A stretch of DNA of 64,000 nt from Escherichia coli O157:H7 (GTDB lineage: Bacteria; Pseudomonadota; Gammaproteobacteria; Enterobacterales; Enterobacteriaceae), in assembly GCF_013167455.1 (NCBI RefSeq), contig NZ_CP038330.1; one strand, 5' to 3'. The notes under the pieces are model-generated. The model was not told the DNA's origin. It worked only from the letters and a program-made list of their open reading frames with translations, and made no database searches. Both the position numbers and the translations under genes were made by a program. Of this stretch, positions 10,566 through 64,000 are shown piece by piece; the first letter of the stretch is position 1, and each line of letters opens with the position of its first letter.

Positions 10566-11201
10566 ATGTCACCAGAAACACAGCAACTTACATCCAAGGC
10601 TTTATCTCTCATCGAGCAGTCCCGATACAGAATGGGCACATCTCGGTTTGTTGAGGCCTTTATTGACCAGTGGGCATACTTGCAGACTGGCCTATACCCA
10701 GCCAAGGAGGAGATCCCGGAAGAACTTCAGCCGGTCGCCTTCGAGCTCTCTCACGTCCTGTCTGCCGCCATTAAGCGCGACCCCACCAGCGATGTTTTGG
10801 GTTACGTCCTAAGCATGTCTGGCTTCCACAAGAAGGGCACCAATTACTTCCCCACTCCTCCAGAGATTGGCCGCTTGATGTCACTCATTGTTGGCTCACA
10901 GTCTTCGGCAGACTTTTATGAGCCCTGCTGTGGTTCTGGCATCAACGCCATTCACTGGATGGAAAACCTGATCGAGAACCACGGTCCCGAAGCATTGAGA
11001 GAAGCCTCAATCTACCTGGAAGACATCGATCCGTTGATGGTGAAGTGCTGCATGATCCAGCTATTCCATTATTTCGAGTCCCGCAATACCACTCCCAAAA
11101 CGCTGAGTATCGTCGGCATAGACACCCTTAGCAGACGAACCAAGAACATCGCCTACTACGCCGAAAAACCTCCAGCAACCGCCGCTACCGTGGCAGCATA
11201 A
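10566..11201 (+). CDS. SAM-binding N6-adenine methyltransferase-like protein, short (211 aa), lacking the NPPY catalytic motif
   Basis: YFPTPPEIGRLM and DFYEPCCGSGINAI match the TP..V and DPxCGSG motifs of gamma-class N6-MTases; no NPP(Y/F/W) before the stop; ATG at 10566 with GGAG RBS. Confidence 0.45.
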   Translation: MSPETQQLTSKALSLIEQSRYRMGTSRFVEAFIDQWAYLQTGLYPAKEEIPEELQPVAFELSHVLSAAIKRDPTSDVLGYVLSMSGFHKKGTNYFPTPPEIGRLMSLIVGSQSSADFYEPCCGSGINAIHWMENLIENHGPEALREASIYLEDIDPLMVKCCMIQLFHYFESRNTTPKTLSIVGIDTLSRRTKNIAYYAEKPPATAATVAA

Positions 11202-11228
11202 AAAAACCCGCCGATTGGCGGGTTTTGC
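11200..11228. terminator. bidirectional rho-independent terminator
   Basis: AAAAAAACCCGCCGATTGGCGGGTTTT between convergent genes. Confidence 0.65.
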
Positions 11229-11253
11229 ATTCAATGCGCTGCTCTATGGCACC

Positions 11254-11526
11254 TTACAGTTTTCCGTACCGGTTCAAGAACGAAGACCTGTCTAAGATCC
11301 CCCAGTCTGTCAGCATGTAGTAGCCGGTGGCACCTCGTTCGCCGGTAGACTCCCTGACGAACAAGATATTCATTCCGAACTCATCACGCAGGGCAGACAA
11401 CTGTCTCTTGATCGTTGATTCAGGAATATTTGTTGCCTTGTGAAGGTCTTGGAGACTTGGCTTCTCCGTTTTAGACAGGGCATTCACCAAAGCAAATTTT
11501 CTTTTCATGTCCTGTGAGATCTTCAT
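11254..11526 (-). CDS. small HTH DNA-binding protein, third gene of the parAB operon
   Basis: ATG at 11526 with AGGTG RBS (track shows GTG at 11532); immediately downstream of parB as orf 053 is in IncC plasmids (recollection). Confidence 0.45.
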   Translation of the reverse strand: MKISQDMKRKFALVNALSKTEKPSLQDLHKATNIPESTIKRQLSALRDEFGMNILFVRESTGERGATGYYMLTDWGILDRSSFLNRYGKL

Positions 11527-11574
11527 ATTCACCTGTTCTTGACAGGCCCAACCTCTCTGGCTGGGCCTCCTTTA

Positions 11575-12756
11575 TTAGCCTTCGACACTCAGGAGTTCAA
11601 TGTCTGACACAGGCACATGAACATGCTTTTCCTTGCCTTCGCCATCGAGCGTTTTAACCCAGACAGTAGACGGAACCAGAGCAACACGGTCGGTCATGAT
11701 GACTCCACGTTTGGTCTCGCCATCCAGGTTAACGTTGACAGCAAAAATCAAACTGTCAGCCCGGACGTTCTTCCATTCCTTGTCCTTCGGCAGAGGAGGA
11801 AGAGCATCACCGCCTTCTTCATCTTTGTCCTTGCCGCTGTTATCTGGCTGCTTGACAGGATCTTTGTGCTCACCCTCTTCATCACGCAAAGGGTCTTCGT
11901 CATCATCGTCCTGACCATTGGAATTTTTACCCCCTTCCAGTTCCTCCTGGGCAAGGTTCAGGTCGTCATTCCCGGTTTGTTCCGACGTACCATCCCCACC
12001 CGAGTTGAGGGATTGCTCGTCGGTGTTGCCAGCGCCAAGCTCATCATTCTGGTGGGAGCCAGTCAGTGGGCCTTTTTCCATTTCGTCTTTGATACGTTTG
12101 GCATCATTCAGCAGCTCACGGCTTTGTTTACGAGTAATCCCGTCAGACATAGCCACCGCGCAGACGGCGCGACATCTTTCTTCATTCAGATCGAACAAGA
12201 GACGAAGGTTATTCAAGGTCTCTGTATCAGAACATACTTCATTATCGTATAACTCACGCACACAGTCAGGTAGCTTGAGCAACGACAGATGCGTAGATAC
12301 GAAAGTGATATTCTTACCGAGCCGATCAGCAATATCCTTTTGCTTCCAACCTTCTTCAATAAACAGGTTTAACGCCTCGGCAATCTCTACCGGAGTCAAG
12401 TCATCCCGCTGGATGTTTTCGATCAGCTCACCAGCAGTCTCGTCCAAGTTGTTCTGGACCTTATCATTCACCACCAAGTCAATGGTCTCGATACCAGCGT
12501 GTTTACACGCTCTCCAACGCCGCTCCCCTTTTTGGATGACGAACTTGCCTTCTTCGTTCTTCGGGAACACGATGATCGGAGACTGCTGCCCTTCGGTCAG
12601 CAAGGTTGCCGCCAGCTCTTCAATGTTACGGAAGCGCTTACGAACCTGGACCTTGGATACAACGTCGTCAACAGGTACGGTAAGAACCTCTTTGCCTTTC
12701 TTGCCTTTGGCGGCTTTAGCAAGTTCGGACAGGCCTTTTAAATTGTTCAATGCCAT
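11575..12756 (-). CDS. parB: ParB partition protein (ParB/Spo0J nuclease-like domain)
   Basis: 393 aa; ParB N-terminal domain (IIVFPKNEEGKFVIQKGERRWRACKHAG); acidic low-complexity C-terminal half; directly downstream of parA. Confidence 0.85.
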   Translation of the reverse strand: MALNNLKGLSELAKAAKGKKGKEVLTVPVDDVVSKVQVRKRFRNIEELAATLLTEGQQSPIIVFPKNEEGKFVIQKGERRWRACKHAGIETIDLVVNDKVQNNLDETAGELIENIQRDDLTPVEIAEALNLFIEEGWKQKDIADRLGKNITFVSTHLSLLKLPDCVRELYDNEVCSDTETLNNLRLLFDLNEERCRAVCAVAMSDGITRKQSRELLNDAKRIKDEMEKGPLTGSHQNDELGAGNTDEQSLNSGGDGTSEQTGNDDLNLAQEELEGGKNSNGQDDDDEDPLRDEEGEHKDPVKQPDNSGKDKDEEGGDALPPLPKDKEWKNVRADSLIFAVNVNLDGETKRGVIMTDRVALVPSTVWVKTLDGEGKEKHVHVPVSDIELLSVEG

Positions 12757-12759
12757 CGC

Positions 12760-13551
12760 TTAGCCCACCTTCTCTAATAGTTCTTCCAACACCGCCTCAA
12801 CTTCTTTGGCCGCGACATGTCCATAGCGAAGCTCCCAGACAGGGATGCCATCAGTCGTCGCCGTATCGAGCGGAGGCCGGTGCATAATTTTGTTCTCAAA
12901 CAACAGATCCGGAACTGTGTTCTCCAGCGACTTGAGGGCTTTGTCGTGATTGACAGAGCGGTCCATGTCGTTGATCACGATGCCCAGGATCTCCAAATCT
13001 TGGTTGTACGCCTCGCGCACACCAATAATCGTGTTCAGGAGACCTTCTACGCCGTCCACAGCGAAGCCAGAGAGCTTTACTGGACATGCCACATGGGTAG
13101 ACATCACCAACGCTGCCACCAGCTTTCTGCCGAGGCTAGGCGGACAATCAATCAGCACGTAGTCGTAGTTCTCAAACAGCTCAGCCAAATGGCGAGCCGG
13201 ATTCATGGCCTGGTCAAGAGGCACAGCCTCCATCTCAAACAGATCCGGGTCGTTTTTCGGCGTATGAATGAGGTCTGCACCGCAAGGGCAGTGCATGACC
13301 TCAATGCCGTCCAGCTCGTAAGCGAACAGCTCTGCGGTTTTGGTTCCTGTGAGGATGGGCTCGTAGTCACCATCCTCAAGCTCTCGTCTGGGGGCCAGTC
13401 GAGAGGACGTGTTCCCCTGACCATCCATATCCAAGACCAGCACTTTCTTTTTCTTCTGTAACGCCAGATAAAAGGCCTGCTGGATACAGAGGGTACTCTT
13501 ACCCACTCCGCCTTTCTGGTTGGCGAAGCTGATTACTTTTGCCATACCCAC
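12760..13551 (-). CDS. parA: ParA partition ATPase (type I, deviant Walker A)
   Basis: KVISFANQKGGVGKST deviant Walker A; ParA/MinD family length. Confidence 0.9.
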   Translation of the reverse strand: MGMAKVISFANQKGGVGKSTLCIQQAFYLALQKKKKVLVLDMDGQGNTSSRLAPRRELEDGDYEPILTGTKTAELFAYELDGIEVMHCPCGADLIHTPKNDPDLFEMEAVPLDQAMNPARHLAELFENYDYVLIDCPPSLGRKLVAALVMSTHVACPVKLSGFAVDGVEGLLNTIIGVREAYNQDLEILGIVINDMDRSVNHDKALKSLENTVPDLLFENKIMHRPPLDTATTDGIPVWELRYGHVAAKEVEAVLEELLEKVG

Positions 13552-13593
13552 CTCTATTTTGGTTTCTCGCAGGTGATCAAGACCACCCCCAAA

Positions 13594-13638
13594 CTTTCAC
13601 ATGTGAAAGATTGTAGCGATCATAAAATGATACTGCAA
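13594..13638 (-). promoter_or_regulatory. parA promoter with overlapping palindromic operator (copy 2)
   Basis: Minus-strand -35 TTGCAG (13633-13638), 17-bp spacer, -10 TACAAT (13610-13615), then palindrome CTTTCACATGTGAAAG (13594-13609) at the predicted start site. Confidence 0.6.
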
Positions 13639-13718
13639 TATCTAATTATGGTTCTGTTAAAACAAACTTTAAACAAAAAAACGGCCATGAAGGCCGCTTA
13701 TTGACAAGGTTTGTGCTG

Positions 13719-14030
13719 TCAGCGCAATTGATTTGCTGCTCCAAGCCCATTCGCCAATAACTGCATCGCATCGTTGAACAGCGCGGAGCCCCGTTCCGGT
13801 GTGAGCAATTCCGGCATATCTTCTCGCGGCCAAGTACCGGCTACTTGAATGAGCAAACTGGCAGCCCAGTGGATCTGCTTTTCTTCACTTTCATCGGCCA
13901 GAGTGCATACGACGGGGAAACCGTACTTACGCCCCCAGCGACTCACCTCTTTGAACGATACCAGCTCAGGCTTTTGCAAATCCCGGCTGTAGGCCTCAGC
14001 TATCATGTGGTTCAGTTCTTTAGCGTCCAT
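13719..14030 (-). CDS. hypothetical protein; last backbone gene before the resistance island
   Basis: 103-aa ORF with hairpin downstream (~13687-13703). Confidence 0.45.
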   Translation of the reverse strand: MDAKELNHMIAEAYSRDLQKPELVSFKEVSRWGRKYGFPVVCTLADESEEKQIHWAASLLIQVAGTWPREDMPELLTPERGSALFNDAMQLLANGLGAANQLR

Positions 14031-14336
14031 TTATCCCACTCTATTGTAAACAAGACATTTTTATCTTTTATATTCAATGGCTTATTTTCCTGCTAATTGG
14101 TAATACCATGAAAAATACCATGCTCAGAAAAGGCTTAACAATATTTTGAAAAATTGCCTACTGAGCGCTGCCGCACAGCTCCATAGGCCGCTTTCCTGGC
14201 TTTGCTTCCAGATGTATGCTATTCTGCTCCTGCAGCTAATGGATCACCGCAAACAGGTTACTCGCCTGGGGATTCCCTTTCGACCCGAGCATCCGTATGA
14301 GACTCATGCTCGATTATTATTATTATAGAAGCCCCC

Positions 14337-15152
14337 ATGAATAAATCGCTCATCATTTTCGGCATCGTCAACATAACCTCGGACAGTTTCTCCGATGGAG
14401 GCCGGTATCTGGCGCCAGACGCAGCCATTGCGCAGGCGCGTAAGCTGATGGCCGAGGGGGCAGATGTGATCGACCTCGGTCCGGCATCCAGCAATCCCGA
14501 CGCCGCGCCTGTTTCGTCCGACACAGAAATCGCGCGTATCGCGCCGGTGCTGGACGCGCTCAAGGCAGATGGCATTCCCGTCTCGCTCGACAGTTATCAA
14601 CCCGCGACGCAAGCCTATGCCTTGTCGCGTGGTGTGGCCTATCTCAATGATATTCGCGGTTTTCCAGACGCTGCGTTCTATCCGCAATTGGCGAAATCAT
14701 CTGCCAAACTCGTCGTTATGCATTCGGTGCAAGACGGGCAGGCAGATCGGCGCGAGGCACCCGCTGGCGACATCATGGATCACATTGCGGCGTTCTTTGA
14801 CGCGCGCATCGCGGCGCTGACGGGTGCCGGTATCAAACGCAACCGCCTTGTCCTTGATCCCGGCATGGGGTTTTTTCTGGGGGCTGCTCCCGAAACCTCG
14901 CTCTCGGTGCTGGCGCGGTTCGATGAATTGCGGCTGCGCTTCGATTTGCCGGTGCTTCTGTCTGTTTCGCGCAAATCCTTTCTGCGCGCGCTCACAGGCC
15001 GTGGTCCGGGGGATGTCGGGGCCGCGACACTCGCTGCAGAGCTTGCCGCCGCCGCAGGTGGAGCTGACTTCATCCGCACACACGAGCCGCGCCCCTTGCG
15101 CGACGGGCTGGCGGTATTGGCGGCGCTGAAAGAAACCGCAAGAATTCGTTAA
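14337..15152 (+). CDS. sul2: sulfonamide-resistant dihydropteroate synthase Sul2
   Basis: 271 aa, MNKSLIIFGIVNITSDSFSDGGRY..., recognised as Sul2. Confidence 0.97.
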   Translation: MNKSLIIFGIVNITSDSFSDGGRYLAPDAAIAQARKLMAEGADVIDLGPASSNPDAAPVSSDTEIARIAPVLDALKADGIPVSLDSYQPATQAYALSRGVAYLNDIRGFPDAAFYPQLAKSSAKLVVMHSVQDGQADRREAPAGDIMDHIAAFFDARIAALTGAGIKRNRLVLDPGMGFFLGAAPETSLSVLARFDELRLRFDLPVLLSVSRKSFLRALTGRGPGDVGAATLAAELAAAAGGADFIRTHEPRPLRDGLAVLAALKETARIR

Positions 15153-24036: not shown

Positions 24037-24261
24037 TCATGAGGTTGAACACGGCTTGCGCCGGCAGCGTTCACGCTCCTGGTCGGCGATCTCGCCCGGC
24101 TGCAATGCTAGCTCAGCATCGGTCATGCGCTCCAGCACGTCGCGTAGGCGGATGGTGCAAGGAATGGGCGGCAGCTCGAACTCATAGCCGCCGGCGATCA
24201 TTTCGGCCGCAATCTCCTCGGTGATGAAAAACGGCTCGTCGTCTTGGTTCGGCTTCTTCAT
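24037..24261 (-). CDS. hypothetical protein (74 aa)
   Basis: ORF overlapping the resolvase stop (ATGA). Confidence 0.3.
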   Translation of the reverse strand: MKKPNQDDEPFFITEEIAAEMIAGGYEFELPPIPCTIRLRDVLERMTDAELALQPGEIADQERERCRRKPCSTS

Positions 24262-24965
24262 GCCCTTTCCTCCTGGCGCTCATCCTGGCCGACAGCGGCC
24301 AGGGCATCGGCTTCCGTCAATGCGTCCTCCACGAACGCGCCGTGCTGCTTCGCTTCGGCCTGGCTGACCTCGGCCCATATCCGTTTCACCTGGGCCGCAC
24401 TGTACCCGGCCAGCTCGGCGGTCTTGTTGATGCTGTAGCCGGACTTGCGCAGCGCGACAACTTGGGCGCGGCGCTTCGGATCAGCACGGCGGCCCTTGTA
24501 CCGCCCGGCCTGGCGGGCCAACTCAATGCCTTGGCGCTGGCGTTCGCGCCTGTCCTCGTAGTCGTCGCGGGCCATCTGCAAGGCCAGGCGAAAAAGCATG
24601 ATCTGCACGGCTTCCAGCACGATCTTGGCGACGCCCTGGGCCTCGGCCGCCAGGTCGGATAGATCGACCACGCCAGGGACGGCCAGGCGTGCGCCTTTGG
24701 CCTGTATCGAGGCCACCAGGCGCTCGGCCTCGGGCAAAGGTAGGCGGCTGATGCGGTCGATCTTCTCGGCAATGACCACCTCGCCGGGCTGTAGGTCGCC
24801 GATCATGCGCAGCAGCTCAGGCCGGTCGGCGCGTGCGCCGGATGCCTTCTCACGGTAGATGCCGGCGACGTAGTAGCCGGCGGCCTTCGCGGCCGTAGTG
24901 ATCGCCTCTTGGCGTTCCAAGTCCTGCGCGTCGGTGCTGACGCGCAGATAGACCCGCGCCACCAT
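24258..24965 (-). CDS. serine recombinase (resolvase family)
   Basis: N-terminal catalytic motif MVARVYLRVSTDAQDLERQ; C-terminal HTH (YSINKTAELAGYSAAQVKRIW); start taken at internal Met. Confidence 0.8.
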   Translation of the reverse strand: MVARVYLRVSTDAQDLERQEAITTAAKAAGYYVAGIYREKASGARADRPELLRMIGDLQPGEVVIAEKIDRISRLPLPEAERLVASIQAKGARLAVPGVVDLSDLAAEAQGVAKIVLEAVQIMLFRLALQMARDDYEDRRERQRQGIELARQAGRYKGRRADPKRRAQVVALRKSGYSINKTAELAGYSAAQVKRIWAEVSQAEAKQHGAFVEDALTEADALAAVGQDERQEERA

Positions 24966-25118
24966 CGGCGCGGCTACTGGCTTCGTCCTGCGCATACTTG
25001 CGGGCTCCTTTGGGCATACGCAAAGTGTCCGGTCATGCTACCCCCGGCCAAAAAGGCCGTCATGCGATTTATCTTGGCCGGGTCGTTATTGGCGGGTCTA
25101 AATGGCCGCTCCGTGGAT

Positions 25119-25345
25119 CTCATCGCCAGAAATGGCGATGCGAGATCCAGGGCAGGGCGGCCGCCATCGTCAGACCTGGCGATGGTCGACGCCGGCGCGC
25201 ATCGTCGGATGTGGCGATGCGAGCTCGAGGTCGGTGGCCACCGCCGGCGACCTGGTGCCATCGTCGGCAATGGCGATGCTGCAGCTCGACGTGCGCGGCC
25301 TGGTCGTCTCGGCATCGTCGGATGCGGCGATGCTCGAGCGAGGCG
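25119..25345. repeat. GC-rich iteron-like direct repeats (~5 copies)
   Basis: Repeated CATCGTC(A/G)G...TGGCGATGC units at ~25119, 25157, 25199, 25257, 25312, between the resolvase gene and IS26. Confidence 0.5.
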
Positions 25346-25574: not shown

Positions 25575-26394
25575 GGCACTGTTGCAAAGTTAGCGATGAG
25601 GCAGCCTTTTGTCTTATTCAAAGGCCTTACATTTCAAAAACTCTGCTTACCAGGCGCATTTCGCCCAGGGGATCACCATAATAAAATGCTGAGGCCTGGC
25701 CTTTGCGTAGTGCACGCATCACCTCAATACCTTTGATGGTGGCGTAAGCCGTCTTCATGGATTTAAATCCCAGCGTGGCGCCGATTATCCGTTTCAGTTT
25801 GCCATGATCGCATTCAATCACGTTGTTCCGGTACTTAATCTGTCGGTGTTCAACGTCAGACGGGCACCGGCCTTCGCGTTTGAGCAGAGCAAGCGCGCGA
25901 CCATAGGCGGGCGCTTTATCCGTGTTGATGAATCGCGGGATCTGCCACTTCTTCACGTTGTTGAGGATTTTACCCAGAAACCGGTATGCAGCTTTGCTGT
26001 TACGACGGGAGGAGAGATAAAAATCGACAGTGCGGCCCCGGCTGTCGACGGCCCGGTACAGATACGCCCAGCGGCCATTGACCTTCACGTAGGTTTCATC
26101 CATGTGCCACGGGCAAAGATCGGAAGGGTTACGCCAGTACCAGCGCAGCCGTTTTTCCATTTCAGGCGCATAACGCTGAACCCAGCGGTAAATCGTGGAG
26201 TGATCGACATTCACTCCGCGTTCAGCCAGCATCTCCTGCAGCTCACGGTAACTGATGCCGTATTTGCAGTACCAGCGTACGGCCCACAGAATGATGTCAC
26301 GCTGAAAATGCCGGCCTTTGAATGGGTTCATGTGCAGCTCCATCAGCAAAAGGGGATGATAAGTTTATCACCACCGACTATTTGCAACAGTGCC
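25575..26394 (-). mobile_element. IS26, complete 820-bp copy
   Basis: 14-bp terminal IRs GGCACTGTTGCAAA at 25575-25588 and (reverse complement) 26381-26394; intact tnp26. Confidence 0.95.
25627..26331 (-). CDS. tnp26: IS26 transposase Tnp26 (wild-type Gly184)
   Basis: 234 aa MNPFKGRHFQRDIILWAVRWY...; contains RIIGATLGF. Confidence 0.95.
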   Translation of the reverse strand: MNPFKGRHFQRDIILWAVRWYCKYGISYRELQEMLAERGVNVDHSTIYRWVQRYAPEMEKRLRWYWRNPSDLCPWHMDETYVKVNGRWAYLYRAVDSRGRTVDFYLSSRRNSKAAYRFLGKILNNVKKWQIPRFINTDKAPAYGRALALLKREGRCPSDVEHRQIKYRNNVIECDHGKLKRIIGATLGFKSMKTAYATIKGIEVMRALRKGQASAFYYGDPLGEMRLVSRVFEM

Positions 26395-27098
26395 TACATT
26401 TCAAAAACTCTGCTTACCAGGCGCATTTCGCCCAGGGGATCACCATAATAAAATGCTGAGGCCTGGCCTTTGCGTAGTGCACGCATCACCTCAATACCTT
26501 TGATGGTGGCGTAAGCCGTCTTCATGGATTTAAATCCCAGCGTGGCGTTGATTATCCGTTTCAGTTTGCCATGATCGCATTCAATCACGTTGTTCCGGTA
26601 CTTAATCTGTCGGTGTTCAACGTCAGACGGGCACCGGCCTTCGCGTTTGAGCAGAGCAAGCGCGCGACCATAGGCGGGCGCTTTATCCGTGTTGATGAAT
26701 CGTGGGATCTGCCACTTCTTCACGTTGTTGAGGATTTTACCCAGAAACCGGTATGCAGCTTTGCTGTTACGACGGGAGGAGAGATAAAAATCGACAGTGC
26801 GGCCCCGGCTGTCGACGGCCCGGTACAGATACGCCCAGCGGCCATTGACCTTCACGTAGGTTTCATCCATGTGCCACGGGCAAAGATCGGAAGGGTTACG
26901 CCAGTACCAGCGCAGCCGTTTTTCCATTTCAGGCGCATAACGCTGAACCCAGCGGTAAATCGTGGAGTGATCGACATTCACTCCGCGTTCAGCCAGCATC
27001 TCCTGCAGCTCACGGTAACTGATGCCGTATTTGCAGTACCAGCGTACGGCCCACAGAATGATGTCACGCTGAAAATGCCGGCCTTTGAATGGGTTCAT
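26394..27098 (-). CDS. tnp26: IS26 transposase, G184N variant
   Basis: Same as Tnp26 except RIINATLGF (GGC->AAC); stop codon recreated as TAG at the junction. Confidence 0.9.
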   Translation of the reverse strand: MNPFKGRHFQRDIILWAVRWYCKYGISYRELQEMLAERGVNVDHSTIYRWVQRYAPEMEKRLRWYWRNPSDLCPWHMDETYVKVNGRWAYLYRAVDSRGRTVDFYLSSRRNSKAAYRFLGKILNNVKKWQIPRFINTDKAPAYGRALALLKREGRCPSDVEHRQIKYRNNVIECDHGKLKRIINATLGFKSMKTAYATIKGIEVMRALRKGQASAFYYGDPLGEMRLVSRVFEM

Positions 27099-27161
27099 GT
27101 GCAGCTCCATCAGCAAAAGGGGATGATAAGTTTATCACCACCGACTATTTGCAACAGTGCC
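26395..27161 (-). mobile_element. IS26 truncated tandem copy 2 (767 bp; lacks the 53-bp tnp-distal end including one IR)
   Basis: Begins at the tnp stop codon directly abutting the IRL of copy 1; ends with TTTGCAACAGTGCC. Confidence 0.85.
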
Positions 27162-27865
27162 TACATTTCAAAAACTCTGCTTACCAGGCGCATTTCGCCC
27201 AGGGGATCACCATAATAAAATGCTGAGGCCTGGCCTTTGCGTAGTGCACGCATCACCTCAATACCTTTGATGGTGGCGTAAGCCGTCTTCATGGATTTAA
27301 ATCCCAGCGTGGCGTTGATTATCCGTTTCAGTTTGCCATGATCGCATTCAATCACGTTGTTCCGGTACTTAATCTGTCGGTGTTCAACGTCAGACGGGCA
27401 CCGGCCTTCGCGTTTGAGCAGAGCAAGCGCGCGACCATAGGCGGGCGCTTTATCCGTGTTGATGAATCGTGGGATCTGCCACTTCTTCACGTTGTTGAGG
27501 ATTTTACCCAGAAACCGGTATGCAGCTTTGCTGTTACGACGGGAGGAGAGATAAAAATCGACAGTGCGGCCCCGGCTGTCGACGGCCCGGTACAGATACG
27601 CCCAGCGGCCATTGACCTTCACGTAGGTTTCATCCATGTGCCACGGGCAAAGATCGGAAGGGTTACGCCAGTACCAGCGCAGCCGTTTTTCCATTTCAGG
27701 CGCATAACGCTGAACCCAGCGGTAAATCGTGGAGTGATCGACATTCACTCCGCGTTCAGCCAGCATCTCCTGCAGCTCACGGTAACTGATGCCGTATTTG
27801 CAGTACCAGCGTACGGCCCACAGAATGATGTCACGCTGAAAATGCCGGCCTTTGAATGGGTTCAT
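27161..27865 (-). CDS. tnp26: IS26 transposase, G184N variant
   Basis: Identical to the copy-2 transposase. Confidence 0.9.
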   Translation of the reverse strand: MNPFKGRHFQRDIILWAVRWYCKYGISYRELQEMLAERGVNVDHSTIYRWVQRYAPEMEKRLRWYWRNPSDLCPWHMDETYVKVNGRWAYLYRAVDSRGRTVDFYLSSRRNSKAAYRFLGKILNNVKKWQIPRFINTDKAPAYGRALALLKREGRCPSDVEHRQIKYRNNVIECDHGKLKRIINATLGFKSMKTAYATIKGIEVMRALRKGQASAFYYGDPLGEMRLVSRVFEM

Positions 27866-27928
27866 GTGCAGCTCCATCAGCAAAAGGGGATGATAAGTTT
27901 ATCACCACCGACTATTTGCAACAGTGCC
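27162..27928 (-). mobile_element. IS26 truncated tandem copy 3 (767 bp)
   Basis: Identical unit to copy 2; terminal IR TTTGCAACAGTGCC ends at 27928. Confidence 0.85.
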
Positions 27929-41742: not shown

Positions 41743-42387
41743 AATGGGGATGATGTTACGTTCGTGGACGTTATTTTCACTCGGGATATGTAACGTTGAA
41801 AAAGGCGTACCGACAAGAGAGTGGTCACATAGCTCTCCATAATAGATGAGCGACAAAATCTCTTGCTCGTTGATTTTTCCCACCTTAAAAAGGTAATTGA
41901 TTATTGCTGTATCCAGTAGGTCGTGACACCCATTAAGCAGATCCACGATATTGGCCGCAGCTTCATTTTCCTCTCCGTCATCTCGACCGGCTAATACTGA
42001 TTCAACCCAAGCCTCAAGGCTCGGATGTCCCTCAGCGAGCTCTATTTGACGGCACTCGTTCTCGATCAACCCTGTGATTGCTTCGTTGAGCGTTCCGCCA
42101 TAAGTCGGCATGTTGAGAACAACTCCAAATCCGGGGATTTCTTTTTGGATTGGCTTCGCATCCTTGGGAGCTGATTTCAGCCACAGGAAAAACCAGATCC
42201 CAGAGCTTATGTCTTCCGGCTTGACCTGGTTGGCCGCAAGGAATTTGGAAACCTCGTTACAGATGATGCCATCTGGCGCTGCCATCTCGTAAATACCCGC
42301 CATCAGATCTTCAAGGCTCTTATACATATTATCTCTCGCACCTGTACATGATGTTTTCACTATCGTTGTTAAGCGTTTTTTCAGCAA
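41725..42387 (-). CDS. hypothetical protein (start may be internal Met at 42327)
   Basis: 220-aa ORF; no motif recognised. Confidence 0.45.
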   Translation of the reverse strand: MLKKRLTTIVKTSCTGARDNMYKSLEDLMAGIYEMAAPDGIICNEVSKFLAANQVKPEDISSGIWFFLWLKSAPKDAKPIQKEIPGFGVVLNMPTYGGTLNEAITGLIENECRQIELAEGHPSLEAWVESVLAGRDDGEENEAAANIVDLLNGCHDLLDTAIINYLFKVGKINEQEILSLIYYGELCDHSLVGTPFSTLHIPSENNVHERNIIPIKKGAS

Positions 42388-42433
42388 GTATGTTCCAGCG
42401 AGACATCTTATACCATTCCATCTAAATCTGTAA

Positions 42434-42485
42434 AATTACCGTATTACCGTATTACCGTATTACCGTAATTATGATAATTACGGTA
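42434..42485. repeat. 4x ATTACCGT tandem repeat plus 15-bp palindrome TAATTATGATAATTA
   Basis: In the divergent intergenic region; the same palindrome recurs at 47386-47400. Confidence 0.6.
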
Positions 42486-42601
42486 AATAAATTTAAGTTC
42501 TTCTTGCTGTTGTTCTACTTATTAAAATGTATCTTTGAAAAAGTAGAGTTTTTGGAATAGGATAGGTGGTGCTGAATGCCCACTTTTTACAAGGAGCGCG
42601 A

Positions 42602-43723: not shown

Positions 43724-44734
43724 TTGCACGACACAAACAATGACAAGGAAGAGCTAGTTTCACATGCGAAAGTAAATGTTCCGGCAGAACAAAGCATTCG
43801 CGGTGAACTGTTGCCGTCATCGAGCTCGCTCCGGAACATCCAGGACAACCCCGCCGTCGCCTATCTGGTGAGCCTCGGGTCAAAGCGAAGCAGGCAGACC
43901 ATGAGCTCATTCCTCAACATTGTCGCCAAGATGATCGGGTTTCAGAACCTTCGTGACTGTGCATGGAGCTCAATGAGGCGGCACCACATATTGGCGGTGC
44001 TGGAAATGCTGGGGGATGCAGGGAAGGCTCCGGCAACGATCAACACCTACCTGTCAGCGCTCAAAGGGGTGGCTCTTGAAGCCTGGACGATGAAGCAAAT
44101 TGATACGGATAGCTTCCAGCACATTAAGCAAGTCCGTTCAGTACGTGGATCTCGACTTCCTAAAGGGCGGGCACTTGAACGCCATGAGATTCGCAGCCTC
44201 TTTTTCACATGTGAAAGTGATTCAAGCGCCAAAGGGCTTCGGGATGCGGCCATTCTCGGGGTGCTCCTCGGGTGTGGCTTGCGCCGCTCGGAAATCGTTG
44301 CGCTGGACATGGGAAGCATGATCTACAAGGACCGCGCTCTCAAGGTTCTTGGCAAGGGCAACAAAGAGAGAATGGCGTATGTGCCTGGTGGCGCATGGAA
44401 AAGACTGGATAAGTGGGTTGAAGAGGTTCGAGGAACGCATGAAGGGCCTTTATTCCCGAGGATCAGGCGGTTTGATGATGTGACTGGAGAGCGGATGTCG
44501 GATCAGGCCATCTACCACATCTTGGAGACCAGAAGAGTTGAAGCCGGTCTGGAGATGTTTGCGCCCCATGACCTGCGACGCACCTTTGCCTCCTCGATGC
44601 TGGATAACGGTGAGGATATTGTGACCGTGAAGGACGCAATGGGCCACTCAAGCATTGCAACTACCCAGAAATATGACAGACGCGGCGATGAGCGTTTGAA
44701 GAGAGCGAGCCAACGCCTCGATATAGCGGATTAA
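43724..44734 (+). CDS. int: tyrosine site-specific recombinase (phage-integrase family)
   Basis: TTG start with AGGAGG RBS; C-terminal catalytic region HDLRRTFASSML...GHSSIATTQKY; contains a copy of the palindrome TTTCACATGTGAAAG at 44203-44217. Confidence 0.8.
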   Translation: MHDTNNDKEELVSHAKVNVPAEQSIRGELLPSSSSLRNIQDNPAVAYLVSLGSKRSRQTMSSFLNIVAKMIGFQNLRDCAWSSMRRHHILAVLEMLGDAGKAPATINTYLSALKGVALEAWTMKQIDTDSFQHIKQVRSVRGSRLPKGRALERHEIRSLFFTCESDSSAKGLRDAAILGVLLGCGLRRSEIVALDMGSMIYKDRALKVLGKGNKERMAYVPGGAWKRLDKWVEEVRGTHEGPLFPRIRRFDDVTGERMSDQAIYHILETRRVEAGLEMFAPHDLRRTFASSMLDNGEDIVTVKDAMGHSSIATTQKYDRRGDERLKRASQRLDIAD

Positions 44735-60971: not shown

Positions 60972-61391
60972 TTACTTCTTCTGTGGGATACGGTAGCGCT
61001 CCAGCTCGACAGCTCCCAACCCCTTGAAAGCATCCGGGCGACGTCCTTGCCCACTCCACGAAACTCCGTCTTTTGAATATTTAGCATTATCAGGTTCTGA
61101 TCTGCTCGTGAACATTTCGTTGAGCAAGCCGATGTCCACACCGCAGGATTCCATGTCGCTCATTATTCGCTCAGCCTGAGCTCGCTTTTCTTTTTCTTCT
61201 TCTTCTCGCTTTTTGTACTCTTCCTCCAGTTCATTGAGAACGCCCTTCATTCTGTCAATGATCTCCCGAACTTCATCTAACGGGAGTCCTCGCAACAGGG
61301 TGCGAATGCGGCTTTTACGCTTTAACTCTGCGATTATTAACTCTCTACGTTCAGCCGCTGATAGCGTAGAGAACTCCTCGTGGTCTTTCAT
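60972..61391 (-). CDS. H-NS family nucleoid-associated protein
   Basis: 139 aa; N-terminal coiled coil, C-terminal DGVSWSGQGRRPDAF DNA-binding motif. Confidence 0.8.
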   Translation of the reverse strand: MKDHEEFSTLSAAERRELIIAELKRKSRIRTLLRGLPLDEVREIIDRMKGVLNELEEEYKKREEEEKEKRAQAERIMSDMESCGVDIGLLNEMFTSRSEPDNAKYSKDGVSWSGQGRRPDAFKGLGAVELERYRIPQKK

Positions 61392-61392
61392 G

Positions 61393-61686
61393 TCATACGG
61401 AGCCCATCAGTTTTCCTTTAAGTGAATCACGTTGAGAGTTCAGTTTTGCGTCAGTCTGCACTGGCGAATTTTGATGCTGTGCAGGTTGACTCTCTGAACT
61501 CTGTTGCTCAAAAGACCCAATGTTGCCAGAAAATCGAAGAGAATAAAGACCCAATAGAGCAAGGGCGCGGAGCCGATCACTACGCGCCTTATGCTGCATC
61601 TGGGACAGTTCACGATAGAGCTCCGGAAAGGCTTGCTCCGATATGTTCAGATTAGATATTTTTCCATCCCATTTGCTACCAGCCAC
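61393..61686 (-). CDS. putative ParR-like adaptor of the ParM-type partition module
   Basis: 97-aa ORF immediately downstream of the parM-like gene; assignment by position only. Confidence 0.35.
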   Translation of the reverse strand: MAGSKWDGKISNLNISEQAFPELYRELSQMQHKARSDRLRALALLGLYSLRFSGNIGSFEQQSSESQPAQHQNSPVQTDAKLNSQRDSLKGKLMGSV

Positions 61687-61702
61687 AACGACCTCCTATC
61701 TA

Positions 61703-62686
61703 TCAGCCGCAGAACCAGAAGCCCCTGGCATTGGATGCCACGGATTCGTTGGGCAGTACGATCCTGCTCTTAGGGAAAAGCTCCTTGGCCGCATCTTGGT
61801 AAGCCTCGGCACCGCCGCCAGCCAGCAGAACTACGTCAGCATCCATCCCGTCCTCACGCATTGACTTCCGCATAGGGATCAAGGCGTTTTGAGCGACTTT
61901 GGTTGAGGCTTTCTTGAAGTAGTCTTTGATCGATACCTTTTCACCGTAGAGGAAGATTTCGGCCTTACCGGCACGAATAGCTTTCTCGATCTTTTCGATG
62001 CCAGGGGCACCGCCGTGGTCTTCCTGAATTAGCCGGTCCGTTTCCTGTAGCAACACCGACATCGCCTTGAGGCTGGTGCCAGATGAGTGATAGCGGACCT
62101 CTCCCTCTTCAAGAGCTACCCAGTCTACAGAAAAGAACCCAGGGTCAATTACAACGGTTTTTCCTCCCTGGATAATCTCCAGGAGGTCTTCATCTTTGGT
62201 TGAACTTACAACATCCATGTAAGCACCGGCAGGTTGAGGTACAACCACGACAGACTTAACCGCTACCGATCGTTTTGGCGTGATCTGGTGTTCACCCTCA
62301 AGCCGAGATTTCAACGCCTCTCTGCGCTCTACGTCCATGTACTGACTAACAGGCAGGCCAGTCACCAGCACATCGATCTCCTTCTGCTCGGACATCAGGA
62401 GTGCAGCGTAGAAAAGAGCCTTGTATGGATTGGTCGAAGGATAGTCACCGTGAAGCTCACGCTCCCATCCTTGCAATCGGTCAGGCTCGACGCCTGCAAC
62501 CCATTTCTCTCCATCAATCACAACCTGAATGCAGGTCCCTGCACCGCCAGTTAACTGTTGTGGCATCAGTTCCAATGGACCTGCCCCCACCGGCATGACG
62601 ACTGTGCGAGCTTCCTCACCTTTATACCCCATTGCCATTTTCAGGTTGGAGTAACCAATATCCAAACCCAGAACAAATTGACTCAT
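61703..62686 (-). CDS. ParM/StbA-like actin-type partition ATPase
   Basis: Start MSQFVLGLDIGYSNLK with GGAGGA RBS; actin/Hsp70-fold phosphate-1 motif; VLLAGGGA adenosine motif. Confidence 0.75.
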   Translation of the reverse strand: MSQFVLGLDIGYSNLKMAMGYKGEEARTVVMPVGAGPLELMPQQLTGGAGTCIQVVIDGEKWVAGVEPDRLQGWERELHGDYPSTNPYKALFYAALLMSEQKEIDVLVTGLPVSQYMDVERREALKSRLEGEHQITPKRSVAVKSVVVVPQPAGAYMDVVSSTKDEDLLEIIQGGKTVVIDPGFFSVDWVALEEGEVRYHSSGTSLKAMSVLLQETDRLIQEDHGGAPGIEKIEKAIRAGKAEIFLYGEKVSIKDYFKKASTKVAQNALIPMRKSMREDGMDADVVLLAGGGAEAYQDAAKELFPKSRIVLPNESVASNARGFWFCG

Positions 62687-62696
62687 GAAATCCTCC

Positions 62697-63175
62697 AAAG
62701 ATTGCTTTTAGATTGCTTTTCGATTGCTTGCCGCGTGTTGGATAGAGAATAAGGCTAAAAGCGGGGACAGATGGCCTGTGTAATTGCCCAAAAGGGGCAT
62801 ATAGGTTGCTTTTCGGTGGCTTTTTGATCGTTGAGTAAGGGAACCTATGGGAACGCTGCACGGATAGGCTCAGATAAACAGACCTTACCCTCGCATCGAG
62901 AACCGCTTGCCCTCCAGCATCGAGAGACGGTGGTAAAGAGGCATTTGGAATCTTTGATGCCATATCCAATATATCTGGAATCTTTAAATATAGATTCATA
63001 TGTAAAGAGGCTGTGAAAGAATAAGAGCATCAAGATTCCAGATAGATAGAGGGAAATTTGACAAATTCCAAAGATGGGTTAGCCTAGTGACAGAACTAGA
63101 TTCCAGTATTGGAATAATCAGCTTTAAATTCCAGATAGATAGTTATGTGGATAGGAATTGGATAGGAATTGGGAG
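62697..63175. repeat. centromere-like repeat region upstream of the parM-like gene
   Basis: 3x GATTGCTTTT (62697-62730), 2x GGAATCTTT, 2x ATTCCAGATAGATAG, 2x GGATAGGAATT (63150-63171). Confidence 0.5.
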
Positions 63176-63724
63176 GGTATTGAGGTGAGTCTACCAACAG
63201 AGCGATGGCTAGATCTGCTAGATCCGAAGCTCGAAGAAGAACGATCCGAGATAACAGAGGATCTGCTAGAGGCAGAGGGACGAGAGTTTGTTGCAGAGGT
63301 ACGGAGCAAACTGGATCACGCCTTAGCGGTTCTTGCTGTCGAGGCGCAGCAGGAAGCGGACATGTACTGGAACGCGCACAAATCAGCGCGTGAAGAAGCG
63401 TCAGAGGACGAACAAGGGCGTGTCGGTACACGGGTTCGCATTCTAGGCGTATCACTCGTTGCAGAGTGGTATCGCAACAGATTTGTCGAACAAGTTCCCG
63501 GACAAAAGAAAAGGGTTCTATCGACACATATCAAGAAGGGTCGCGGTCATGCCTACAGCATGTCGCACTTCAAGAAAGAGCCTGTCTGGGCACAAGAGTT
63601 GATCCAGCAAGTTGAAACCAGGTATGCCGTGTTAAGACAACGCGCCACTGCCTTAGCAAAAATTCGCCGGGCGCTAAACGAGTACGAGCGCCAGCTAAAC
63701 AAGACACATAGCGACGAGGTGTGA
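63158..63724 (+). CDS. hypothetical protein (start uncertain)
   Basis: 188-aa ORF whose 5' end overlaps the repeat region; acidic/coiled-coil-like. Confidence 0.4.
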   Translation: MDRNWEGIEVSLPTERWLDLLDPKLEEERSEITEDLLEAEGREFVAEVRSKLDHALAVLAVEAQQEADMYWNAHKSAREEASEDEQGRVGTRVRILGVSLVAEWYRNRFVEQVPGQKKRVLSTHIKKGRGHAYSMSHFKKEPVWAQELIQQVETRYAVLRQRATALAKIRRALNEYERQLNKTHSDEV

Positions 63725-63728
63725 CAAC

Positions 63729-64000
63729 ATGACAGCATCTGTAGCGGCCACTGAATTGGCGAAACTGGGGAAATGTGAAGCGATGATCAAGAAAGTCGCC
63801 AGCCATCCTCGCCCTGCCCTGTCAAAGCGCCCACAATCGCCACAGGGGACAGATAGCACCCTTCGGGGTGAGTTCGCTCATTTCCGATATGAAGCGGCAG
63901 CCCTGCGTTTTATGAGCGGCACTGCGGGGGCTAAGCGTCGCATCTACCAGCTAGTGTTTTCAGCGACGGTAGCAGCGGGAGCATTGACAATGCTGGCGGC
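63729..64000 (+). CDS. hypothetical protein, partial; continues beyond window end
   Basis: ATG at 63729 (MTASVAATELAKLGKCEAMIKK...), open to the window end. Confidence 0.35.
   Translation, partial: MTASVAATELAKLGKCEAMIKKVASHPRPALSKRPQSPQGTDSTLRGEFAHFRYEAAALRFMSGTAGAKRRIYQLVFSATVAAGALTMLA

Follow-up and report, generated by a model that had tools for sequence, protein, structure and literature searches.

The interval at 62697-63175 of the window (the whole stretch of 64,000 nucleotides analyzed here) is the stretch separating parM/stbA (vcrx152) from mobI in an IncC conjugative plasmid, and we find that it very likely consists of two conserved cis-acting modules split by a variable spacer, rather than of a single centromere. 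Hundreds of IncC (IncA/C2) plasmids match the final 2.7 kb of the window (61300-64000) at 100% identity, and 964 records in all do so at 99% or more; the gene names used here were taken from the RefSeq annotation of one matching record, NZ_CP041209.1. The literature already describes the locus, its oriT and promoters, and the existence of a second (type II) partition system. What we add is a specific proposal for the IncC parC iterons and for their arrangement around the promoter P152, which would be a small refinement of the published picture.

The interval lies upstream of two divergent genes, parM on the minus strand and mobI on the plus strand (Table 1). The sequence-only reading of this DNA had placed it upstream of an actin-type ATPase gene, and this is borne out by the matches of ParM to the Pfam families ALP_N (E = 2e-33) and MreB-like_C (E = 2e-10). 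Just 17 bp past the end of parM begins a 97-aa ORF, the candidate ParR adaptor. Pfam identifies the upstream acaDC genes as FlhD/FlhC, and acr2, of the H-NS family, is found within the same gene cluster as parM. We also considered whether the repeats might be replication iterons for RepA; the repA gene is located beyond the end of the window, and the literature puts oriV elsewhere on the plasmid. A 125-aa ORF on the minus strand (62622-62999) overlaps the start of parM and was treated as spurious; a shorter ORF overlapping it is annotated as "hypothetical" in one record. We dropped an RNA-gene reading after an Rfam scan of 62500-63300 returned one chance miRNA match, far under the threshold. 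A simple scan for sigma-70 promoters and terminators found no site in 62600-63250; the scan was uninformative, and its empty result is consistent with an activator-dependent P152 and an imperfect mobI -10 element.

Table 1. Features in and around the parM-mobI intergenic region, and the second partition system, in window coordinates.
Feature	Position	Strand	Source or remark
KorB/ParB protein	11575-12756		
ParA	12760-13551		
parS cores TTTCACATGTGAAA	10180, 13595, 44203, 50311, 58352		one-mismatch copy at 43758
H-NS family protein	60972-61391	minus	RefSeq
97-aa hypothetical protein (vcrx151), candidate ParR adaptor	61393-61686	minus	adjoins parM downstream
parM/stbA (vcrx152), actin-like ATPase	61703-62686	minus	RefSeq ParM/StbA family; Pfam
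Proximal iteron cluster, candidate parC half	62700-62732	minus	GATTGCTTTTa, GATTGCTTTTc, GATTGCTTGCc; 11-bp phased
P152 TSS	62738-62740	minus	PMC4207636 Table S3
Likely -10 hexamer TATTCT	62746-62751	minus	read from the sequence
AcaCD box of P152	62775-62803	minus	PMC4207636 Table S3
Distal iteron cluster, candidate parC half	62804-62836	minus	GGTTGCTTTTc, GGTGGCTTTTt, weak GATCGTTGAGt; 11-bp phased
Variable spacer	62840-62940		holds GCATCGAGA x2 and one of two GTAAAGAGGC copies
TGGAATCTT x2	62943-62985		second copy (62967-62985) is the conserved inverted oriT repeat CCAGATAnAT; R55 ~97-139
GGAATCTTT x2	62947, 62977		
Fully functional oriT	63001-63185	plus	R55 139-323, PMC5587640
ATTCCAGATAGATAG x2	63035, 63128		
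First direct copy of ATTCCAGATAGATAG (oriT repeat)	63035-63049	plus	invariant in relatives
mobI promoter	63058-63091	plus	-35 TTGACA 63058-63063; -10 TAGCCT 63080-63085; TSS ~63091
Core oriT	63089-63162	plus	R55 227-300; holds one CCAGATAGATAG and one 14-bp direct repeat
Palindrome ATTCCAGTATTGGAAT in core oriT	63100-63115		
CCAGATAGATAG copy in core oriT	63131-63142		
Overlapping 14-bp direct repeats TGGATAGGAATTGG x2, 11-bp period	63148-63172	plus	transfer-essential; within R55 280-323
GGATAGGAATT x2	63149, 63160		
mobI, GTG start, oriT-specific mobilisation factor	63185-63724	plus	RefSeq "MobI(A/C)"; Pfam MobI E = 3.8e-31

The interval holds 24 repeated 9-mers, compared with a mean of 0.81 (maximum 8) in dinucleotide-preserving shuffles, and ranks with the most repeat-rich 479-bp segments of the 64 kb. 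The four repeat families listed in the sequence-only reading are all found where it put them and at a density far above that of the shuffles, with one correction: GATTGCTTTT, given as occurring three times, is exact at 62700 and 62711, but the third copy at 62722 is GATTGCTTGC, which agrees at 8/10 positions. Two further phased copies had not been listed, GGTTGCTTTT at 62804 and GGTGGCTTTT at 62815. There is inverted symmetry as well: TCTGGAATCTT (62969-62984) pairs over 16 nt with AAGATTCCAGAT (63032-63047) at 94% complementarity, and two families described as direct repeats, GGAATCTTT and that beginning ATTCCAGAT, are also inverted copies of each other. An AT-rich makeup (31-47% GC) raises the odds of short repeats, and one could suppose that these are non-functional remnants or chance low-complexity sequence of intergenic DNA. 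We give this explanation virtually no credence: none of the 1000 shuffles reached the observed repeat load, the motifs and their geometry are kept in plasmids whose ParM is only 76-80% identical, and published deletions show that the distal (oriT) repeats are functional, which refutes the explanation for that part of the interval.

The mobI-proximal part of the interval, 63001-63185, is almost certainly the IncA/C oriT together with the mobI promoter. The single IncA/C oriT was mapped through mobilisation of subclones and through deletions (Hegyi et al. 2017, PMC5587640). In plasmid R55, positions 139-323, directly upstream of mobI, form a fully active oriT with its core at 227-300, while the segment 97-139 is dispensable, its absence having had no effect on mobilisation. 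Deletion of both overlapping 14-bp direct repeats abolished transfer. The same study reported a GC content of 37% for the oriT region and a main mobI promoter with a -35 TTGACA, a 16-bp spacer, a -10 TAGCCT and a TSS about 93 bp before the GTG; the nic site, at which TraI cleaves, was unmapped as of that report. To carry R55 coordinates to the window we used an offset of +62862, taken from the many IncC records that start at window position 62863, and checked the transfer on the -35 and -10 boxes, the TSS and the 14-bp repeats; the coordinates so obtained are indirect and may be 1 bp off. We find all of the published features (promoter boxes, TSS, direct repeats and GTG) at consistent spacing in the window, and a GC content of 31-38% over 62950-63200. 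This is the same locus as the oriT-mobI region of R55, R16a and pVCR94, short inverted repeats included, with no difference within 63001-63185.

Given their positions in the transferred map, both copies of ATTCCAGATAGATAG and both copies of GGATAGGAATT are oriT repeats. Two of the four families that had been read as a centromere filling some 470 bp thus fall inside the mapped oriT and mobI promoter, and that claim fails for them. The GGAATCTTT pair is in or next to the dispensable R55 segment 97-139, just outside the oriT, and represents an inverted form of the oriT repeat. Among the listed families, only that of GATTGCTTTT would fit a centromere.

The oriT module has a regular internal layout in related plasmids. 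Counted from the mobI start, CCAGATAGATAG occurs three times, inverted at about -218 and direct at -147 and -54, in IncC, IncA, pAsa4b and an Aeromonas plasmid; the V. owensii plasmid has four copies. Plasmid pPROV008-1 carries a third 11-bp copy of GGATAGGAATT, and a third copy of the direct repeat has been reported for R16a (PMC5587640). To the published IncA/C oriT our analysis adds a third, inverted CCAGATAnAT copy that lies outside the functional oriT (62967-62978) and keeps its geometry across relatives. It falls in the second TGGAATCTT copy, which forms the left arm of the 16-nt inverted repeat with 63032-63047. When folded as single-stranded DNA, the core oriT is no more stable than shuffled sequence (z about -1.1), and only the inverted repeat at 62960-63055 stands out (z = -2.8). 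MobI recognises the oriT region and recruits the MOBH12 relaxase TraI (bioRxiv 10.1101/2025.04.21.649884). We suggest that the CCAGATAGATAG and GGATAGGAATT repeats are the protein-binding sites, presumably those of MobI. According to published work, MobI and TraI process this module, which combines the oriT with the mobI promoter.

The parM-proximal module is built around P152, a promoter that is silent without AcaCD and activated by it (Carraro et al. 2014, PMC4207636). For pVCR94deltaX, Table S3 of that study gives an AcaCD motif at 120163-120191 (negative strand, p = 2.1e-10, ChIP-exo/MAST), a TSS at 120126-120128 and the vcrx152 start at 120074 (PMC4207636); we transferred these coordinates to the window with the vcrx152 start codon as the anchor. 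The resulting 5' UTR of parM is 53 nt long, and the core of the AcaCD box, TGCCCAAAAGGGGCA at 62785-62799, is invariant in relatives. Flanking P152 are two clusters of an iteron with the consensus G[AG]T[TG]GCTTTT, in four good and two weak copies. The proximal iterons (62700, 62711 and 62722) lie in the 5' UTR, downstream of the TSS, and abut the Shine-Dalgarno sequence, and the distal iterons (62804, 62815 and 62826) lie directly upstream of the AcaCD box. On the sense strand of parM the order is CTCAACGATC-AAAAAGCCACC-GAAAAGCAACC-(AcaCD box)-...TATTCT...-TSS-GGCAAGCAATC-GAAAAGCAATC-TAAAAGCAATC-TTTGGAGGATTTC-ATG. Each unit contains an A4-5 tract, at a phasing of about 11 bp. Exact matches to GRTKGCTTTT, a motif derived from this same sequence, are found on both strands of the 64 kb only at 62700, 62711, 62804 and 62815, and none is near the other AcaCD-like boxes of the window. 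We propose that these iterons, which are the only credible candidate in the interval, probably constitute the parC of the plasmid.

To see how the interval varies, we aligned six plasmids (two IncC, a variant IncC, an IncA, pAsa4b and a V. owensii plasmid) whose ParM proteins share 76-100% identity with that of the window. The alignment has two conserved blocks, one holding the iterons and the AcaCD box and the other the oriT, and a poorly conserved, gapped middle at about 62840-62940; the non-conserved spacer between the modules measures roughly 100-160 bp. The positions of the proximal iterons are conserved in the IncA, variant IncC, pAsa4b, Aeromonas and V. owensii relatives. When we searched without bias for the most repeated 9-mer (at most 1 mismatch) over the 175 bp preceding parM, the iteron came out on top in the IncC, variant IncC, IncA and V. 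owensii plasmids, and only 0-3 of 200 shuffles equalled it. Two metagenomic relatives are syntenic with IncC here, encode a ParR of about 48% identity with a putative strand KFSNLKIS versus KISNLNIS, and are without the AAAAGCAATC unit. In one of these, L007, TGAGTCCCT is found at -134, -123 and -30, the places of the IncC iterons; taken one by one, the repeats of the two metagenomic relatives fall short of significance (21/200 and 30/200 shuffles do as well). The oriT repeats, by comparison, keep their sequence in relatives whose parM-proximal repeats change. The covariation of ParR and repeats, seen in these few sequences, favours a co-evolving, specific binding protein.

The candidate for this binding protein is the 97-aa product of vcrx151. 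We identified 53 homologues, none of them annotated, and their alignment displays a conserved N-terminal part of about 50 aa, a variable linker and a conserved C-terminal LKGKLxGSV. This is the layout expected of a ParR-type adaptor, with a putative DNA-binding domain and a putative ParM-binding tail. Searches of Pfam, NCBIfam and PDB-sequence profiles, and Foldseek against the PDB, gave no meaningful match. AlphaFold models the monomer at a pLDDT of 67 and a tandem-dimer construct at 49; the monomer has helices at 21-28 and 32-52 after an extended segment (pLDDT 74-86 there) and no paired strand. A ribbon-helix-helix fold was not confirmed by AlphaFold, Foldseek or the profile searches. For a comparison with characterized systems we retrieved an SXT/R391-type locus through the published srpC probe sequence. 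The 97-aa family aligns with SrpR in hhalign at a probability of 96.9% (E = 1.5e-10), over both the N- and C-terminal conserved parts, and SrpM of this element is 58% identical to the ParM of the window. The profile comparison shows the 97-aa protein to be homologous to SrpR, which binds the centromere of SXT/R391.

Beyond these homologous parts, the IncC and SXT/R391 loci share much of their organization. In both, parM-parR (or srpM-srpR) is divergent from mobI with the oriT beside mobI, an activator of the FlhDC type drives the promoter (AcaCD in IncC, SetCD in SXT/R391), and repeats in the 5' UTR abut the Shine-Dalgarno sequence. However, the repeat sequences themselves are unrelated, the IncC ones being 11-bp direct iterons (GATTGCTTTT) that differ from srpC. 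IncC also differs in having a further pair of iterons upstream of the activator box, no int downstream and a second partition system, parABS. In SXT/R391, the specific target of SrpR is a 251-bp fragment next to srpM that includes four 13-bp repeats of the 5' UTR (Carraro et al. 2015, PMC4489591), and srpM, srpR and srpC are all required to stabilise a test plasmid (PMC4489591). Binding and stabilisation were thus demonstrated for srpMRC, to which the IncC locus is likened by sequence.

These comparisons bear directly on the claim of the sequence-only reading that the whole array of about 470 bp is one extended, ParR-bound, parC-like centromere. Repeats do occur throughout the interval, and SrpR both shifts the full intergenic fragment of SXT/R391 and shows some affinity for oriT DNA. 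Nevertheless, binding of SrpR to the oriT fragment is non-specific and is competed away by non-specific DNA (PMC4489591), and the distal 185 bp of the interval have been mapped functionally as an oriT and promoter. The repeat families at opposite ends have unrelated sequences, with the non-conserved spacer between them, and those of the oriT remain constant in relatives while those near parM change. We therefore regard a centromere of this extent as highly improbable. The narrower claim, that ParR binds a parC-like site upstream of parM, is plausible at 62697-62836, and the rest is spacer and oriT.

A different explanation for the parM-proximal repeats is that they are promoter architecture, either DNA-bending A-tracts or binding sites of the H-NS-like Acr2 or some other regulator that tunes the AcaCD-dependent P152, or that they act as an RNA element in the 5' UTR. 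The parM-parR pair would then have no dedicated cis site here, or no partition role. The A4-5 tract of each unit at its ~11-bp phasing, the presence of acr2 in the gene cluster, the transcription of three of the iterons and the dispensability of the locus in transposon screens (PMC10954446) all agree with such a role. Yet one of the clusters is upstream of the promoter and is untranscribed, and no other AcaCD-like box in the window has the iteron motif beside it. L007, with its diverged ParR, has non-A-tract TGAGTCCCT repeats at the same positions, which a specific, co-evolving binder fits better, and the homologous SrpR binds repeats at the equivalent place. On balance we consider the promoter-architecture explanation unlikely and continue with the iterons as the candidate parC.

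The proposed arrangement resembles that of plasmid R1, whose parC has ten 11-bp iterons, arranged as one set on either side of the promoter (Dam & Gerdes 1994 and Moller-Jensen et al. 2007, as cited in later work). Common to IncC and R1 are the gene order parC-parM-parR, the 11-bp iteron period, two iteron clusters that bracket the operon promoter and would allow autoregulation, and a small adaptor that is conserved in its N-terminal domain and its C-terminal peptide. In contrast to R1, IncC has 4-6 iterons instead of 10 and a promoter that needs the plasmid activator AcaCD. Searches of PDB and Pfam detected no sequence similarity between the IncC adaptor and the ParR of R1 or pB171, and the IncC ParM scores 39.7 bits against the NCBIfam ParM equivalog, for which the cut-off is 417 bits. 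We propose a model in which AcaCD activates P152 of the parM-parR operon and dimers of the 97-aa SrpR homologue would then occupy successive iterons, to either side of the promoter, along a single face of the helix. The resulting partition complex would capture the ends of ParM filaments through the conserved C-terminal peptide of this protein, so that plasmid copies are pushed apart. ParR bound to the iterons in the 5' UTR and beside the AcaCD box may also exert feedback on P152, probably damping it as ParR does at the parC of R1.

With respect to the type II definition, the locus has an actin-like ATPase and, directly downstream of parM, an SrpR-homologous adaptor; short repeats upstream of parM and over its promoter are found at 62697-62836 and not at 62840-63175. 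The plasmid's other partition system is the IncC parABS with its parS sites (Szabo et al. 2024, PMC10954446). The sequence-only reading had credited the element with two partition systems, and it does encode both ParA and ParB/KorB (11575-13551), as published for IncC (PMC4489591, PMC8373056, PMC10954446). We also considered the interval as a parS region for ParB and rejected this; it has no TTTCACATGTGAAA core, and the window has six matches elsewhere.

Previous work already called vcrx152/vcrx151 a putative, AcaCD-controlled parMRC of IncA/C, beside the essential parABS (PMC4489591 and later studies), and this "putative" IncC parMRC is not among the non-mutable maintenance loci in transposon screens (PMC10954446). 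One may ask whether a parMRC next to the oriT functions mainly in conjugation and not in vertical inheritance. This idea comes from the dispensability of parMRC for maintenance in these screens, from the finding that the partition proteins of R1 enhance transfer (PMC4949242), and from the 4-14-fold drop in R391 transfer upon deletion of srpMR (PMC4489591). Iteron-bound ParR and ParM filaments might then place the oriT and relaxosome at the mating apparatus or, alternatively, segregate freshly replicated or transferred copies in the transfer-competent state, and the iterons bracketing P152 would couple parMRC to activation by AcaCD. We hold a mainly conjugative role to be rather doubtful.

The division of the interval has a practical consequence, in that constructs for partition tests must leave out 63001-63185; a functional oriT and a strong promoter would otherwise be included. 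IncC plasmids are major carriers of multidrug resistance, and the sites for their maintenance and transfer are therefore useful as targets.

Six copies of the IncC ParB-binding parS core TTTCACATGTGAAA are found in the window (five exact and one with a single mismatch) where 0.01 would be expected by chance, and the copy at 13595 lies just upstream of parA. The plasmid's type I partition system, ParABS, has these six copies as its centromeres and stands beside the putative type II system parM-parR. The parA and parB genes, parB with a KorB domain, adjoin sul2 approximately 50 kb upstream of mobI. In NZ_CP022359.1, a 100% match, the relative orientation of the parA/parB and mobI regions is the reverse of that in the window, which suggests that the IncC backbone of the source plasmid has been rearranged or deleted.

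Coordinates of features in the window and in two comparison loci
Feature	Sequence	Position	Strand
parS core	TTTCACATGTGAAA	10180, 13595, 43758, 44203, 50311, 58352	
parA and parB	window	11000-15000	-
Resolvase gene	window	24258-24995	-
Palindromic units	window	25120-25343	
IS26-like array	window	25628-27883	
Repeat-rich region	window	42000-42500	
Tandem repeat	window	42435-42467	
Inverted CCAGATAnAT copy	window	62967-62985	
oriT repeat variant	NZ_CP096363.1	2100-2136	
CGAGACGCCAAAC motif	L027	3430-3650	

Other repeats occur in the window. Five copies of the ~20-nt palindromic unit CATCGYCNGANNTGGCGATG, irregularly spaced at 35-59 bp, adjoin the resolvase gene and could form a res-like array or another recombination or regulatory array. 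The three IS26-like transposase units (240-aa ORFs, Pfam DDE_Tnp_IS240) are arranged head-to-tail with 99% identity, an unusual array because its 767-bp period is shorter than a complete IS26 of 820 bp. Four perfect tandem copies of ATTACCGT lie within a region that scored as repeat-rich.

At the transfer origin, the third copy of CCAGATAnAT is inverted and lies beyond the limits of the functional oriT as published; its position, at a distance of ~71 bp from its neighbour, is kept in relatives (IncA, pAsa4b, Aeromonas, and V. owensii). The 16-nt inverted repeat that it forms with 63032-63047 folds better as single-stranded DNA than shuffled sequences do (z = -2.8). Among the comparison loci, plasmid pPROV008-1 (NZ_CP096363.1) carries an oriT repeat variant, with a third copy of the direct repeat, identical to one reported for R16a, in which mobilisation was unaffected (PMC5587640). 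Upstream of mobI in L027, an SXT/R391-type element of Vibrio mytili, the motif CGAGACGCCAAAC is repeated in both direct and inverted orientation. This SXT-type motif differs from the IncC oriT repeats, in parallel with the MobI proteins, which have diverged as well.
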